A stretch of 18,018 nucleotides of DNA from UHGV virus genome UHGV-1603728. The stretch is one strand, 5' to 3'. Source of the DNA: a virus. The stretch's first letter is position 1. Each line of letters opens with the position of its first letter. The position numbers and the translations under genes were made by a program. Below the pieces are notes generated by a model, which was not told the DNA's origin, made no database searches, and was given only the letters and a program-made list of their open reading frames with translations. Of this stretch, positions 3,533-16,857 are shown piece after piece.

Positions 3533-4153
3533 TTATGCTTCCTGAATACGCTTAAACTTAATTACCCATACCCACGGGTTAGATAGCCAGTTCTCTTGCC
3601 CGTAAATACCGCGCCAGATATCACCAAAACCAACACGATAAACAGCTTCCGGCGGCGTAATCTTGTACGTTGCCGGAGATGCGCCTTCCGCTTTGGCATC
3701 TGCCTCGCTCATGTCATGCAGCCGCTCCACACGCACGTCGGTAATTTCCAGCAAAATTCGCGATGCCCATCTCGGCATGTGAATTGACGGGGTCCAGCCC
3801 TCAGATGGCTTGCTACTATCTGAGTAATCAGCCTTGTAATCACACAGCTCAGAAGCCAGAGAGACACCATCTTTGATTTCCTGAATAACATCGTCATCCA
3901 GCCAAAAAGCGTTGAATGTCTCACGTACCCATATGCGATCACCAACGTTACCGAACGGGCATAAGCCATGCTCAGGTGCATCCATAACGTGGGTATAGAC
4001 ACCATTGCGTTTCTTTGTCGGTTTACTGATAACCAGGCAGTTATCGGCCCTGACATTTTTTACAGGTCGACGAGTCTGCGTCTTCCTGCCTTCGAGGATG
4101 GCTCGGACCATCTCATCATTAAAAATCATGCCGCGCTCTTTCACCTTGCTCAC
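3533..4153 (-). CDS. ASCH-domain-like (PUA-fold) phage protein
   Basis: GTG start at 4153 with strong SD GGGAGGAG 5 nt upstream, overlapping the upstream stop (GTGA). The motif MIFNDEMVRAILEGRKTQTRR ... GDRIWVRE resembles phage ASCH-domain proteins. Confidence 0.5.
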   Translation of the reverse strand: MSKVKERGMIFNDEMVRAILEGRKTQTRRPVKNVRADNCLVISKPTKKRNGVYTHVMDAPEHGLCPFGNVGDRIWVRETFNAFWLDDDVIQEIKDGVSLASELCDYKADYSDSSKPSEGWTPSIHMPRWASRILLEITDVRVERLHDMSEADAKAEGASPATYKITPPEAVYRVGFGDIWRGIYGQENWLSNPWVWVIKFKRIQEA

Positions 4154-4515
4154 TTCAACTCCTCCCGACGACGTTCCTGAAGCTCTAGCATTGCGGCTCG
4201 GAAATCCTGCCACCATTCCTCATCTGCAACGGGGGTGTTTCGCTCCAGCACCTTGTCCGCATCAGCGATCAGGTTTGCCAGACTATTGTCTGAAATCTTC
4301 GTTACCGGAGTCGTTGGTTGCTCAACCTGCCCGATAGGTTTTATCGTGCTCAAAAGGAGGCGACGGCGGGAAAGTGGTGCCCCACAACGACGGTCATCTT
4401 CCTTGCGATATGTTTCTTTCGGACCAACACACCAGGTTGTCGGCGTTTCACGCAACTTCACTCTTTTCTCACCATCATTGGTAATGATTATTCCGGTATG
4501 GGTTTTGATGCTCAT
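4150..4515 (-). CDS. Hypothetical protein (121 aa)
   Basis: ORF with SD GAGGGG upstream; its ATG overlaps the upstream stop (ATGA). Confidence 0.45.
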   Translation of the reverse strand: MSIKTHTGIIITNDGEKRVKLRETPTTWCVGPKETYRKEDDRRCGAPLSRRRLLLSTIKPIGQVEQPTTPVTKISDNSLANLIADADKVLERNTPVADEEWWQDFRAAMLELQERRREELK

Positions 4516-10914: not shown

Positions 10915-11064
10915 ATGTCCGAACAACAATATACACGGTTACTGAAAACTCGTCTAACCGACCTCAAACGGCTGCAAGCTGGTCGCTTATTTGCCCTGCT
11001 ATCCACCAGGCCAGAATGGGTACGTGAAGCAGTTCTGAAAGGCTTAATGCGCTCCAGCGTTTAA
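10915..11064 (+). CDS. Hypothetical small protein (49 aa); doubtful
   Basis: Short ORF with SD AAGGGGA upstream of ATG 10915; ends just before the convergent terminator hairpin. Confidence 0.3.
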   Translation: MSEQQYTRLLKTRLTDLKRLQAGRLFALLSTRPEWVREAVLKGLMRSSV

Positions 11065-11074
11065 ATTCAGCCAT

Positions 11075-11098
11075 AAAAAAAGGCCCCCGAAGGGGCCT
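11075..11098 (-). terminator. Intrinsic terminator (7-bp GC stem, CGAA loop), effective mainly on the minus strand
   Basis: AGGCCCC-cgaa-GGGGCCU with a run of 7 T on the minus strand, directly downstream of the small hydrophobic ORF. Confidence 0.6.
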
Positions 11099-11103
11099 AA
11101 TCG

Positions 11104-11226
11104 CTACTTGCTGCTAATGTTTATCGTCACATTCAGAGCGTTATCAGTAATCTTCCAACCCTCCCCATGTGGCGTAAACAAAGCTCCAGTAACAACGATA
11201 AAAATACACATGTAGTATTTTTTCAT
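11104..11226 (-). CDS. Small hydrophobic peptide (40 aa), candidate type I toxin
   Basis: MKKYYMCIFIVVTGALFTPHGEGWKITDNALNVTINISSK has one N-terminal hydrophobic helix. It is followed by a terminator and preceded by a long 5' leader containing a 20-nt box complementary to a divergent RNA. Confidence 0.35.
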   Translation of the reverse strand: MKKYYMCIFIVVTGALFTPHGEGWKITDNALNVTINISSK

Positions 11227-11290
11227 TGTGTGGCCCTTACAGGCCGTTTCACGGCATCCCCACCGACGAAAATGTCGCGAGAGCAAGCAC

Positions 11291-11310
11291 GCTGTTTGTG
11301 CCTGCGTGGT
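11291..11310. repeat. 20-nt box copy 1 (GCTGTTTGTGCCTGCGTGGT), in the putative leader of the small-peptide mRNA
   Basis: Identical at 19 of 20 positions to 11541-11560. Confidence 0.6.
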
Positions 11311-11498
11311 ACGGCAAGTGGATAATCCTTTCCTGAAAGTCAGTGCCCGGGTGCGAATCGGCGGAAAGGCCCCAAGCCATATTACACGTCATACCCTTCA
11401 TAATGAAGGAATAAAAAACGCTTTTATTACATAAGATTACACGTAAATAAGTTAAAAACCTTCATTTTGCATGAGCTAATGAGCTAAATTTTTTTATA

Positions 11499-11516
11499 TG
11501 AATAGTGGACTATTCA
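11499..11516. promoter_or_regulatory. Perfect palindrome TGAATAGT-GG-ACTATTCA
   Basis: 8-bp arms with a 2-bp spacer, between the divergent putative promoters and 25 bp upstream of box copy 2. Confidence 0.4.
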
Positions 11517-11643
11517 CCTCAGTTGGGTAAGAATGTAGTTGCTGTTTGTGCTTGCGTGGTTGTATTAGTACAACGACGTTATGCTGAAAGGACCGCGAAT
11601 CCGATCAGCACGAAAGAACCGTCCTCAATAGGGCGGTTTTTTT
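11500..11643 (+). ncRNA. Candidate antisense sRNA (antitoxin-like) containing box copy 2 (11541-11560) and ending at an intrinsic terminator
   Basis: No credible ORF. Box copy 2 read on the plus strand is complementary to the minus-strand transcript at box copy 1 (19 Watson-Crick pairs and 1 G-U). The 5' end is not defined. Confidence 0.3.
11617..11643 (+). terminator. Rho-independent terminator (plus strand)
   Basis: 9-bp stem AACCGUCCU / AGGGCGGUU with loop CAAU, followed by a run of 7 T. Confidence 0.65.
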
Positions 11644-12197
11644 GTTTCTCCCCCTTCCTTCCCAAATGATTCAAATGTTAATGAGAGAGAATCATTTGAT
11701 ATGTTCGATTTAGCGCCGTTATCGACCCAATTTCTGTATGCTTCATCACAACAGTACCTTACAGCAGTTGGAATAACAGGAGAGCCGCCCAGAAATGAAA
11801 ATCCCATTGAGCTTATGCTAATTCTTTCGAATGGCCTATTTCTCAATGCTTCAAATCCCTTGCTGTTGAAGTAACTCAGCATCAGAGGTAAAAGGTTATC
11901 CTCGTCTTGACTGATTGTTCCCGGGAAAAAGTAGTAACCATGGCGATTAAATTCGGGAATCAGTTTTTCTACCAACAACATGAAATTCATTGGGGTAATA
12001 TTAAGGGCAGAGCAAGCACCAAAAAGAGCATCAACCGTTAATACAGACTGTCCGTTCTCTATCTTTGTCCATGCGTTTGGTGTTTTTCCAGCAGCTTGAG
12101 CCAGCACTCCTTGATGCACACCTCTTTCTAGCCTAAGTTCTTTTATGATCATTAGGTGGATTGTTGAAAAACATGAGTTTTTTGACGTTTCAGTCAT
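11625..12197 (-). CDS. XRE-family HTH regulator with a C-terminal domain of unknown function
   Basis: Start trimmed to MTETSK (ATG 12197, SD GGGGAT upstream). HTH segment IKELRLERGVHQGVLAQAAGKTPNAWTKIENGQ. Divergent from the antirepressor operon. Confidence 0.55.
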   Translation of the reverse strand: MTETSKNSCFSTIHLMIIKELRLERGVHQGVLAQAAGKTPNAWTKIENGQSVLTVDALFGACSALNITPMNFMLLVEKLIPEFNRHGYYFFPGTISQDEDNLLPLMLSYFNSKGFEALRNRPFERISISSMGFSFLGGSPVIPTAVRYCCDEAYRNWVDNGAKSNISNDSLSLTFESFGKEGGETKKPPY

Positions 12198-12350: not shown

Positions 12351-12513
12351 TTAGTCTGTTAAAATCCCTCTGTATTGACATGAATGCGCCATTGGTGGAC
12401 ACTTTCCGAGCCGTAGCAAAATCTACGGTCGGGATTAGCCTCCTGAATAACACGATGGCGCATACCGCGTTAGCGGTTTTTTTTATGCGTAGAGCACTGT
12501 TACGCCCAAATTA

Positions 12514-12592
12514 TGGTGGGTCGTACAGGGGCGGAGAAATCCGCGCCGGTTCGTCATTGTGTCCGGTAAGGCTAACCCTGTACGGCTCACCA
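12514..12592 (+). ncRNA. Structured RNA element resembling phage P1 c4 antisense RNA
   Basis: 17-bp closing stem (12514-12530 with 12576-12592) enclosing a GAAA-tetraloop hairpin (12531-12544) and a hairpin with a 13-nt loop (12546-12566). Loop sequences are complementary to flanking target boxes and to the start codon of the downstream small ORF. Confidence 0.4.
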
Positions 12593-12646
12593 CCATTTGA
12601 TTAGCCTCGAATGGCGGTGATAGTTCCATATACTGGAGATATCACA

Positions 12647-12838
12647 ATGACAAACCTACCCCATGACTATTACGTCAACCTCGTAAAGATCCTTCTCAAG
12701 AAAGCCTCATACGCCGATAAATTCCGCCTGGCTGAAATCATCGAGCGCGAAGCTATGCGCATCGCCAGCAACGATAACGCTGTTTCTGACGCAAAAATCT
12801 CCCTCGTAACCAAAGTAGTTATGGGAGGTGCAAAATGA
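12647..12838 (+). CDS. Small protein translationally coupled to the antirepressor (icd-like position)
   Basis: ATG 12647 with SD GGAG 8 nt upstream; its stop overlaps the antirepressor ATG (ATGA). An alternative ATG at 12611 has no SD. Confidence 0.45.
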   Translation: MTNLPHDYYVNLVKILLKKASYADKFRLAEIIEREAMRIASNDNAVSDAKISLVTKVVMGGAK

Positions 12839-14016
12839 AAACGCTTCCGACCGTTAACACCCTACAGCCTATCCTGCATAACCAAATCCCCGTTATCACT
12901 ACTGAACTACTGGCAAAGCTATACGGCACAGACGTTGATAACATCAAAAAAAATTACTCACGTAACGCAAACCGCTTTATTGAAGGAAAGCATTTTTTCA
13001 AAGTGGCTGGCGATGAGTTAAAAACTTTGCGAGTGACTTTAAGTCACTCACAAAATTTGCGACTGGTTTTAAACGAGTCACAAAATGAGGTGCAAATTTC
13101 CCCCAAAACTCGCTCTCTCATCCTCTGGACAGAACGCGGGGCTGCACGTCACGCCAAAATGCTTGAAACTAACCAAGCGTGGGATGTGTTCGAACGGCTG
13201 GAAGACTGCTACTTCAACCAGAACGCGCAAACGGCCGCGACCGTTACCGTCTCGCCAAACAATGCTCGTGAGGTTGTCGATACGCTCAACGCCAAACCGA
13301 TGTTTTACATTAAAGTGTGCAACAACGAGCCACTCACAACCTCAGCCGATGTTGCCCAGGCATTCAGCACCACAAACAATTCCATCGTTATGGCCATCGA
13401 TGCGCTACGCATTCCTCGCACGGCTGCGGCGCGTCACTTCTTTAAAGAGCAACGACCGCTGGAAGGAAGCGACCGCGAAATAACAATCTATCGCATGACA
13501 AAAGACGGATTTACCTTACTCATGGAGAGCATCGACGGTCCAAGCGTGAAAGATATCAAGCTGGCCTACATTGAAGCCTTTAACGCTATCAGCAGCGTGT
13601 TAAAAACACAGTACGAGCGTGATCTGGCTAAACGACTGTACCAGGAAAAAACGATTATCCGCGCGGCAACAGAGCATAATCGGCTATTAACGGAACCGAA
13701 CTACAGGAAGGAACTAATCAAGGAGTTTGACAAGGCAACAGGGAAAACCAAAGCGGCGCTAAATCTGCCAGCAATGACTCAGGAAAATGTGATATCAGCC
13801 TTACTTCTTGATCTGCTCAGAAACGCCAGAGCACTGATCAGCTTTGACGAAAACCTGAATCCTCAGCTCAAGCTACTACCACCGACAGGCAAAGTAGTCG
13901 ACCAGGCAGATCACAACAGCATACTCAGCGTACTGGATGCAAACCTACCAGCCAGGACACTACAGGAACTGATAAAGATATCGGCGGATAAACTGGCCGC
14001 AGGTGCAAAACCATAA
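12835..14016 (+). CDS. Phage antirepressor (ORF6N/KilA-type N-terminal region with Rha-like central domain)
   Basis: N-terminus PVITTELLAKLYGTDVDNIKKNYSRNANRFIEGKHFF is ORF6N-like; the centre PLTTSADVAQAFSTTNNSIVMAIDAL is Rha/Ant-like. 393 aa, SD GGAGG 6 nt upstream. Confidence 0.75.
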   Translation: MKTLPTVNTLQPILHNQIPVITTELLAKLYGTDVDNIKKNYSRNANRFIEGKHFFKVAGDELKTLRVTLSHSQNLRLVLNESQNEVQISPKTRSLILWTERGAARHAKMLETNQAWDVFERLEDCYFNQNAQTAATVTVSPNNAREVVDTLNAKPMFYIKVCNNEPLTTSADVAQAFSTTNNSIVMAIDALRIPRTAAARHFFKEQRPLEGSDREITIYRMTKDGFTLLMESIDGPSVKDIKLAYIEAFNAISSVLKTQYERDLAKRLYQEKTIIRAATEHNRLLTEPNYRKELIKEFDKATGKTKAALNLPAMTQENVISALLLDLLRNARALISFDENLNPQLKLLPPTGKVVDQADHNSILSVLDANLPARTLQELIKISADKLAAGAKP

Positions 14017-16202: not shown

Positions 16203-16502
16203 TCAGATGTTAAACGCTATTCGTTTTCCTGTGGGAAGCTCAACATCCAGGCTTAATTTGCCTCCCATAGCTTCAACGTAACGCTTTAATGTCGCCAGCT
16301 TTAAATCATTTCCGCGCTGCTCCAGCTTTGTTACTGCTGGCTGGCTTATACCCATCGCCTCAGCAACCTGTTTTTGTGATAACTGGAGTTCTTCACGCAT
16401 CATCTGCAAGCCGACCTCAAGAATCATCTCATCTGCCATTTCTTTAATTCGCGCCTGACTTTCAGGTGAACGGCTGGCAATCACCTCATCTAATGTTCTC
16501 AT
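16203..16502 (-). CDS. HigA-like HTH antitoxin (addiction-module antidote type)
   Basis: 99 aa with an XRE HTH (LSQKQVAEAMGISQPAVTKLEQ), directly downstream of and overlapping (TAATG) the RelE/HigB-like toxin gene. Confidence 0.75.
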   Translation of the reverse strand: MRTLDEVIASRSPESQARIKEMADEMILEVGLQMMREELQLSQKQVAEAMGISQPAVTKLEQRGNDLKLATLKRYVEAMGGKLSLDVELPTGKRIAFNI

Positions 16503-16849
16503 TACTTGCTCTCCAGTGTGTTCAGATGTGCTGCAAACTCATCCTCAGCTATACGCACCAGTTTTTCATAAAACCGTTTATCGTTACTTTTGTCTCCTGC
16601 ACAAAGAACGATGGCCCGGCGAATCGGATCGAACACATAAAAGGCTCTTATCGGACGGCCAGAAAACTGAACGCGAAGCTCTTTCATATTTTTGTACCGA
16701 GAACCTTTTACGGTATCGGCATATGGCCTGGGTAACTCAGGTCCGTAAACCTGTAGCTTTTTCAAATCAGCCAAAACCTTTTCCTGAAGAGCGTCTTCTT
16801 GCTCATTTAGCCAGTCATCAAATCGCTGGCTAAAAAGTACCGTCCACAT
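16502..16849 (-). CDS. RelE/ParE-superfamily HigB-like toxin (addiction-module killer type)
   Basis: About 115 aa, in the toxin-upstream HigBA arrangement. Start trimmed to ATG 16849 (MWTVLFSQRFDDW) with SD AGGA upstream. Confidence 0.7.
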   Translation of the reverse strand: MWTVLFSQRFDDWLNEQEDALQEKVLADLKKLQVYGPELPRPYADTVKGSRYKNMKELRVQFSGRPIRAFYVFDPIRRAIVLCAGDKSNDKRFYEKLVRIAEDEFAAHLNTLESK

Positions 16850-16857
16850 GCTCAATC

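Follow-up and report, generated by a model that had tools for sequence, protein, structure and literature searches.

A probable timP/TimR-family toxin–antitoxin locus on a phage-plasmid

The toxin mRNA and the divergent RNA

The DNA considered here, called the window throughout, is the whole 18,018-nt stretch of the viral genome UHGV-1603728; the locus in question occupies positions 11075 to 11643. On its minus strand lies a short open reading frame (ORF) for a small hydrophobic peptide, and on its plus strand the gene of a divergent small RNA (sRNA). A first-pass annotation, made from the sequence alone, had read this layout as a type I toxin–antitoxin (TA) pair, and homology bears that out: the mRNA matches Rfam family RF00126, the peptide is TimP-like, and the divergent RNA has the architecture and the core of TimR. 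We estimate a probability of roughly 85% that the locus belongs to the enterobacterial timP/TimR (ryfA) family of type I TA systems, as a member that has diverged in sequence and is carried by a phage-plasmid. The candidate had hence been assigned to the right type of TA module, but the system is not a new one, because the timPR family has been characterized experimentally (PMC7667032, PMC11228461, PMC13000454). The following features make up the two genes.

11075–11376, minus strand: timP (ryfA-type) toxin mRNA of ~300 nt, comprising a ~150-nt 5′ untranslated region (5′-UTR), the ORF, the 3′-UTR and a terminator (Rfam RF00126; the 5′ end is putative)
11104–11226, minus strand: timP ORF, 40 amino acids, MKKYYMCIFIVVTGALFTPHGEGWKITDNALNVTINISSK (ORF list, NCBIfam NF040796 and BLASTP)
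11075–11098, minus strand: timP intrinsic terminator (from a scan: 7 pairs, 6 of them G-C, then a T-run; matches the RF00126 terminator)
11379–11384, minus strand: putative timP −10 hexamer TAATAT, read from the sequence, with a likely transcription start at ~11372–11376
11291–11310, minus strand: box 1, by homology the TimR-binding site, ACCACGCAGGCACAAACAGC in mRNA sense; it spans the 5′ flank, the 5′ strand and the loop of stem-loop (SL) 2
11538–11643, plus strand: TimR-type antitoxin sRNA of about 100–106 nt, with box 2 at its 5′ end, a small hairpin, the core and the terminator (from its fold and from comparison with chromosomal TimR)
11587–11610, plus strand: conserved TimR core, AAAGGACCGCGAATCCGATCAGCA
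11506–11534, plus strand: putative TimR promoter, TGGACT-17 nt-AAGAAT, read from the sequence

An Rfam scan of the whole window matched ryfA (RF00126, gathering score 80 bits) at 11374–11076 on the minus strand with 135.4 bits (E = 5e-35; model positions 1–296 of 296), and the RNA can be aligned from end to end with 13 ryfA RNAs of chromosomal origin. The 40-codon minus-strand ORF seen before at 11226–11104 was recovered with MKKYYMCIFIVVTGALFTPHGEGWKITDNALNVTINISSK as its product, and NCBIfam model NF040796 (toxic_TimP) covers the peptide from end to end (residues 1–40 of 40, E = 1.2e-4, 22.2 bits). Peptide and Escherichia coli K-12 TimP have an N-terminal MK..C.I.IV(S/T)GAL(F/L)T and a C-terminal SSK in common. 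The peptide does possess the single hydrophobic segment that had been described for it; this segment is N-terminal (roughly residues 6–17 on the Kyte–Doolittle scale), and the profile parallels that of K-12 TimP. The start codon is found at RNA position 149, versus 146–147 in those chromosomal homologs where the ORF was located (a script located it in 16 of 19 homologs, always at 146–149). Immediately 3′ of the ORF, again as annotated, follows the terminator at 11098–11075, consisting of AGGCCCCTTCGGGGGCCT and seven T. In 11 relatives, the ORF is intact and 97.6–100% identical. ORF, Shine-Dalgarno (SD) sequence and start position are intact in 12/12 phage-plasmid sequences, with at most three nucleotide differences, and only three codons of the timP ORF vary among them.

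Diverged relatives have a hexamer resembling a −10 element at this location too (TAACAT in L005, TAAAAT in L007; L numbers designate the loci compared), and a consensus promoter scan made no call at the timP hexamer TAATAT. Judging from sequence, the timP and TimR promoters would both be sigma-70-like and of weak-to-moderate strength. The putative −35 element of timP is overlapped by a 7+7 palindrome, CCTTCAT-A-ATGAAGG (11395–11410), and an extra copy of CCTTCAT occurs 60 bp off (11459–11468). These CCTTCAT elements are not conserved in the L007-type relatives.

The supposition that timP is unannotated held for all 12 related records inspected, probably because the peptide scores under the NCBIfam cut-off. 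The same sub-threshold score is probably the reason why a search for homologs of the peptide in a collection of 5.8 billion proteins returned only its own cluster, which is unnamed and has three members from Logan assemblies. As the peptide search yielded nothing beyond this cluster, the distribution of the locus was worked out on the DNA/RNA level. What becomes apparent is an annotation gap, with a peptide below the cut-off missing from every record inspected.

The plus-strand RNA folds with z = −4.7, and none of 200 shuffled sequences was equally stable. Its elements (box, small hairpin, core stem-loop and terminator) follow one another in the same order as in chromosomal TimR genes; its core, AAAGG(A)CCGCGAAUCCGAUCAGCA, has one inserted nucleotide and three substitutions relative to the chromosomal AAAGGCCGCGAACCGGACCAGCA. 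Homology to TimR was judged from a visual alignment and a pattern search, and Rfam gave no match to a TimR model. The strong plus-strand terminator that had been claimed at 11617–11643 is supported by RNAfold, which predicts a 14-bp hairpin including part of the U-run, but it was not called by the consensus scan. Likewise, the stretch said to be free of ORFs is overlapped by a mechanically called 54-amino-acid ORF starting with GTG (11505–11669, plus strand), although this ORF is unannotated in every relative examined.

Upstream of TimR, relatives retain the −10 region (TAAAAT in L007). The palindrome described there as perfect (11499–11516) has two perfect 8-nt arms, but its center, GG, is asymmetric (TGAATAGT-GG-ACTATTCA). 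This inverted repeat (8+8) overlaps the putative −35 element of TimR. It was considered as an operator and discarded: the window contains no second copy beyond chance, the left arm is deleted in L005 and L006, and the presence of the repeat is uncorrelated with that of the neighboring gene for a helix-turn-helix (HTH) protein.

Pairing of the boxes and fold of the 5′-UTR

Box 1 (11291–11310, GCTGTTTGTGCCTGCGTGGT) and box 2 (11541–11560, GCTGTTTGTGCTTGCGTGGT) are identical at 19 of 20 positions and lie 250 bp apart from start to start. When transcribed from opposite strands, they pair over 20 nt with 19 Watson-Crick pairs and one G-U, and box 1 is situated 65–84 nt upstream of the ATG; in all this, the first-pass annotation was correct. 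An independent repeat search of the window recovered the same pair. At up to three mismatches, only these two copies exist in the window, and none of 200 dinucleotide-preserving shuffles gave a match. Box 1 takes the position of the site that was mapped experimentally in Salmonella (SL2, >60 nt upstream of the ribosome-binding site [RBS]; PMC7667032, PMC11228461), and box 2, as the 5′ end of TimR, that of the validated interaction region in the homologous sRNA.

In an alignment of 12 phage-plasmid loci, three co-varying box types were distinguished. The type of the window and L005 reads GCTGTTTGTGC(C/T)TGCGTGGT; both boxes of L004 carry T3C and T5C, and both boxes of the L007 type carry T5C. 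The boxes therefore change jointly in relatives and RNA pairing is kept, the opposite of the outcome (same-strand conservation lacking compensatory changes) that the annotation had named as a refutation. Predicted duplex energies, calculated from local windows because full-length 5′-UTR by TimR duplexes from RNAduplex were long and uninformative, were −36 to −43 kcal/mol for cognate partners, −32 to −36.5 kcal/mol for the other phage-plasmid types and −17 to −27 kcal/mol for K-12 chromosomal partners; the cognate duplex was the most stable one in each box-type comparison. For the chromosomal comparison, 13 loci obtained from a pattern scan with the TimR core and placed with Rfam were used. Among 21 TimRs, the local one ranked first for 15 of the 19 mRNAs, and first or second for all six phage-plasmid mRNAs. 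Most of the conservation lies within the transcripts, with 97.6–100% identity in the ORF and 90–98% in the TimR body, as opposed to the intergenic spacer, where it falls to as low as 53%.

The boxes are also same-strand direct repeats adjoining a partition operon, and co-variation of direct repeats cannot by itself separate DNA sites from RNA pairing. They could accordingly be taken for centromere or operator sites of ParA/ParG or of the neighboring HTH protein rather than for RNA partners. We regard this as highly improbable, as the boxes sit where the interaction of the homologous RNAs was validated experimentally, in SL2 of ryfA and at the 5′ end of TimR (PMC7667032). Furthermore, chromosomal homologs have the same box arrangement and no par genes nearby, a Salmonella phage-plasmid has the par operon without the boxes, relatives lacking the HTH gene keep them, and two copies only, with none elsewhere in the window, would have to serve as sites.

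[quoted passage not shown]

11339–11345, minus strand: site 1, CACUGAC, in SL1; 5′ half of a pseudoknot (A1 columns 30–36)
11311–11316, minus strand: site 2, UGCCGU, a single-stranded linker able to pair with the 5′ flank of SL4 (A1 columns 59–64)
11283–11305, minus strand: SL2, 8-bp stem, loop AAACAGC (minimum free energy structure of RNAfold; A1 columns 70–93, 96% of cells paired)
11249–11280, minus strand: SL3, holding site 3, GUCGGUG (11261–11267), the 3′ half of the pseudoknot (Rfam alignment and pair counts)
11232–11247, minus strand: site 4, ACGGCC (11242–11247), and SL4, GGCC-UGUAAG-GGCC (pair counts and fold)

In A1, stems and pseudoknot were 94.9% paired, compared with 31–43% when the partners were slid by 1–3 columns, and in 500 shuffles neither the pairing nor the covariation score was ever as high as observed (a control that ignores the kinship of the sequences). 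All seven pairs between sites 1 and 3 form in 19/19 sequences (CACUGAC with GUCGGUG in the window, CGCUGGC with GCCAGUG in K-12), with a predicted duplex energy of −11 to −13 kcal/mol. Over the alignment, three of the seven pairs show changes on both sides. Between chromosomal and phage-plasmid sequences, two pairs, 33–112 and 35–110, differ on both sides (U-A becoming C-G, G-C becoming A-U); on this comparative evidence, the predicted pseudoknot is kept via two compensatory base-pair exchanges. Pair 133–144 of SL4 is exchanged on both sides as well (U-A to C-G). The SD sequence AAGGG (11234–11238) is sequestered in SL4 and ends 7 nt before the AUG. Five of six pairs between sites 2 and 4 form in the phage-plasmid sequences (GCCGU with ACGGC; predicted −8.5 kcal/mol), two of them being G-C or A-U pairs in place of the weaker G-U. 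For sites 1 and 2, a shifted 4-bp GGCA/UGCC helix might form, its predicted energy (−6.6 to −8.7 kcal/mol) being similar to that in chromosomal homologs (−2.9 to −7.7 kcal/mol).

Relation to known systems, carrier and possible role

The timP/TimR system, also named ryfA/STnc2070 and RyfB, is known from Salmonella, E. coli and Shigella. In Salmonella, the 38-amino-acid inner-membrane toxin TimP is repressed by the divergent sRNA TimR through pairing over 18 nt in the 5′-UTR, >60 nt upstream of the RBS, and it is for this system only that toxicity (inner-membrane damage) and repression by the sRNA have been reported (PMC7667032). The Salmonella 5′-UTR forms four stem-loops, the second of which is bound by TimR. 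[quoted passage not shown]

The window copy resembles the system so described (Andresen 2020, PMC7667032; Eleftheraki & Holmqvist 2024, PMC11228461; Eleftheraki 2026, PMC13000454) in having a homologous mRNA with a peptide of ~40 amino acids at the same position, the peptide consisting of an N-terminal hydrophobic segment and a polar tail that ends in SSK. It also shares the divergent sRNA, with TimR core and terminator, whose 5′ end pairs with SL2 at a distance of >60 nt from the RBS, and the four-stem-loop 5′-UTR with 7-bp pseudoknot, site 2–4 pairing and an SD held in SL4. It differs from chromosomal timP/TimR in its location, a ~48-kb phage-plasmid where it lies between par and immunity genes, as opposed to the sseA–sseB region for the K-12 copy. 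Moreover, its box sequence is different, so that a mismatch with the TimR of the host is predicted (−17 to −27 versus about −41 kcal/mol), its continuous complementarity is 20 nt rather than the known 18, its timP–TimR spacer is ~90 nt longer, SL4 is shorter, and the lock between sites 1 and 2 is not kept in the homologous register.

Several observations weigh against this reading of the locus. Chromosomal ryfA homologs score 227–317 bits with RF00126, compared with 135 for the window copy, which is the lowest-scoring ryfA among those compared. The peptide remains under the curated NF040796 cut-off (22.2 vs. 45 bits; K-12 TimP reaches 86.8), and its identity to K-12 TimP is as low as 33% (BLASTP, E = 1e-6). 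SL4 comprises five pairs, compared with seven in chromosomal homologs, and in the homologous register two of the five pairs of the site 1–2 lock are broken in 6/6 phage-plasmid sequences. Deletion of timR at its native locus did not stop growth of Salmonella, native TimP levels not being growth-inhibitory (PMC7667032), which means that post-segregational killing cannot be taken as an established trait of timPR systems. Finally, the element carries a type II pair (16203–16855, minus strand), in which an HTH_3 antitoxin comes after a Gp49/HigB-like toxin (PF05973, E = 5e-23) and which could already stabilize the element.

Part of this evidence could also be accommodated if the transcript were mainly a regulatory RNA in the manner of RyfA, or a decaying passenger with a nontoxic peptide, the pairing of the boxes controlling the level of the RNA and not toxin synthesis. 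The score of the peptide under the NCBIfam cut-off and the native TimP levels in Salmonella, which do not inhibit growth (PMC7667032), would be in line with such a situation, and RyfA is reported (PMC8205139, PMC13188913, PMC10664665) to be an sRNA that influences resistance to stress as well as virulence in uropathogenic and avian pathogenic E. coli and in Shigella. However, ORF, SD and start are intact in 12 phage-plasmid sequences while the spacer falls to 53%, and the pseudoknot, the site 2–4 pairing and the stem sequestering the SD are kept via compensatory changes, which is sensible only if translation matters. A transcript that acts mainly as RNA, or one in decay, is therefore improbable.

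If the locus is, as preferred here, a genuine timPR module, its mode of action can be proposed by analogy with Salmonella. The timP mRNA (~11376 to 11075, minus strand) would encode a small toxin of the inner membrane whose signal-like N-terminus stays uncleaved. In the active fold of the mRNA, site 1 would pair with site 3 to form the pseudoknot, and site 2 with site 4, freeing the SD from SL4. The 20 nt at the 5′ end of TimR (box 2) would pair with box 1, that is, with the 5′ strand and the loop of SL2; by occupying SL2, TimR would prevent the pseudoknot and keep the SD sequestered, so that translation is blocked without contact to the RBS. Upon loss of TimR, TimP would be translated and inserted into the inner membrane. 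Transcription starts, toxicity, repression and role of the module in the window are all inferred.

As to the carrier, the 721 bp from 11000 to 11720 are 100% identical to the E. coli plasmid p21KM1392_3 (49.4 kb, circular), which encodes RepA and ParA together with all the structural and lysis functions of a myovirus and is therefore a phage-plasmid. The full-length module was found in 58 plasmids of 46–51 kb from Escherichia and Klebsiella, all typed as non-mobilizable, in three isolated Yersinia phages (vB_YpM_39, 41 and 44) and in 70 of 5,426 complete E. coli genomes; its carriers include E. albertii and E. fergusonii. E. coli ATCC 25922 is a lysogen of this kind, with the 48.5-kb plasmid NZ_CP009073. 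Because the family of ~48-kb myovirus-type phage-plasmids counts 59 plasmids by parA–parG and 60 by the terminase, the module is nearly universal in it, being carried by about 59 of 60 members. The most distant member, the Salmonella salamae plasmid CP053324.1 (L048), contains neither timPR nor the HTH gene in the corresponding region (3900–4400). It keeps parA, parG and a 49-amino-acid ORF, directly followed by isrK/C4, so that ~1.3 kb with timP, TimR and HTH is missing, and this gap marks the boundaries of the cassette. The flanks on both sides of 11075–11650 are mosaic among relatives, which, together with the absence from L048, identifies timPR as a discrete cassette between partition and immunity functions.

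The module adjoins the partition operon (parA–parG), hardly any member of the family lacks it, and the TimR of the host is predicted not to match its box. For these reasons, its role is probably to stabilize the plasmid-prophage through post-segregational growth inhibition. A further-reaching idea, to be regarded as speculative, is that the phage-plasmid captured timPR and retuned it into an addiction module orthogonal to the host copy, the changes in SL4 and in the lock favoring a translatable fold, strong toxin release and post-segregational killing. If so, the diverged box would keep the chromosomal TimR from neutralizing the plasmid toxin and thereby defeat an “anti-addiction” effect of the host, the three co-varying box types would represent incipient specificity classes, and post-segregational killing would be a property that chromosomal timPR does not show. 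We know of no demonstration of killing after plasmid loss for any timPR.

Stabilization and abortive infection had both been suggested in the first-pass annotation, and both are conjectural. Defense is the main alternative role of a real timPR. When an infecting phage shuts off host or plasmid transcription, labile TimR would decay, and TimP would bring about abortive infection or exclude the competitor. The carrier is a temperate phage, the module is located directly beside an immunity region (HTH, isrK-like, C4 and antirepressor genes), and type I toxins such as hok/sok are reported to exclude T4 according to work cited in PMC13000454. No defense phenotype is, on the other hand, known for any timPR, and adjacency to parA/parG fits stabilization equally well; we therefore consider defense unlikely.

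The first-pass annotation had compared the locus to tisB/istR-1, shoB/ohsC and zorO/orzO. The likeness in layout stands, comprising a small hydrophobic toxin, a long structured 5′-UTR, a sequestered RBS and a divergent sRNA with ~18–21 nt of complementarity far upstream of the RBS, but these systems are not relatives. No homology to them or to hok/sok was seen in the scan of the window at Rfam gathering thresholds, which gave only ryfA, C4 and isrK, whether Rfam holds models for these systems not having been checked. Activation of the tisB, shoB and zorO mRNAs involves 5′ processing and/or a ribosome standby site. The switch of timP is described as structural and processing-independent, including a pseudoknot (PMC11228461). 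With hok/sok of plasmid R1, the locus has in common that it is a type I pair borne by a mobile element beside maintenance functions, with the same plausible role. The sequences are unrelated, however, and Sok overlaps its target in cis and acts via the mok leader ORF and RNase III, whereas the antitoxin in the window is encoded 250 bp away and predicted to act in trans on a pseudoknot-dependent mRNA.

New here are the temperate phage-plasmid setting and the degree of divergence, the timPR system itself being already well characterized. The cited timPR papers describe only the conserved chromosomal locus of enterobacteria, and a limited literature search returned no relevant report of a plasmid- or phage-borne timPR/ryfA. 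The locus shows that timPR also exists as a cassette carried by temperate phage-plasmids of a widespread family. Its diverged copy lends independent comparative support, with two exchanges in the pseudoknot and one in SL4, to the recently proposed structural-switch model, and it offers a natural system in which to ask whether timPR can stabilize a replicon or exclude phages.

Neighboring genes and chromosomal loci

To the right of the module follows an immunity region resembling P1 immI, with an isrK-like RNA (12410–12483, 65.7 bits), a C4 antisense RNA (12509–12597, 70.8 bits), and then, in 12611–14016, a small ORF and an ORF6N/Rha antirepressor gene (12835–14016). As expected of a C4 target, the stretch 12643–12656, which lies downstream of C4 and close to where the small ORF annotated in relatives begins, is 93% complementary to the C4 segment 12548–12561. 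An 8-nt match of C4 to the start region of timP was dropped for being within chance expectation. The HTH_3 gene (11625–12197, minus strand) is convergent with TimR, and its last codons are inside the TimR terminator hairpin. Not all relatives possess it (window, L003 and L007 do), others having unrelated sequence in its place, and it is not tied to timPR. The Gp49/HigB-like toxin of the type II pair is annotated in relatives as a RelE/ParE-family toxin or HigB2.

Two plasmids were rejected in the course of the comparison: pSLy3 as a lead for naming the group, since it has 114 kb and belongs to the SSU5 supergroup, and the Klebsiella variicola IncF plasmid pKV1 as a timPR carrier, since it has no ryfA and its hit is confined to a fragment similar to TimR's 3′ half. 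This fragment (L014, ~1495–1560) comprises core and terminator with 81.5% identity over 65 nt and may be a remnant or a different sRNA.

A pattern scan of contigs detected chromosomal TimR genes in Escherichia, Shigella, Citrobacter, Kluyvera, Pseudocitrobacter, Superficieibacter and Salmonella, and its non-enteric hits look like chance. It gave no hit with the core variant of the phage-plasmids, so that no chromosomal donor of this variant was found.

The body of TimR at 11587–11600 (GAAAGG(A)CCGCG) resembles the antisense of the 5′ end of the timP mRNA (GGGGCCUUUCC, 11362–11374), in the window as well as in K-12 (L002). Together with the direct-repeat nature of the boxes, this resemblance suggests a duplication of the 5′ region of timP as the origin of timR, the copy now being read from the opposite strand. 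It might also give TimR a second, discontinuous contact, with SL1.

Among the chromosomal loci, that of Salmonella enterica subsp. arizonae (L023, ~1140–1460) has the SL2 box fused to TimR body and terminator, SL1 and both promoters being missing. Still scoring 227 bits with Rfam, it looks like a degenerate locus left by recombinational deletion between the direct-repeat boxes. The K-12 locus contains two TimR-like genes (1772–1875 and 2090–2200). The box of the proximal gene matches SL2 of Shigella-type timP, and the distal gene is located beside a remnant of a timP 5′ end and overlaps Rfam IS128. The distal one is the better predicted partner of the timP of K-12 itself, with −36 to −39 versus −33 kcal/mol.

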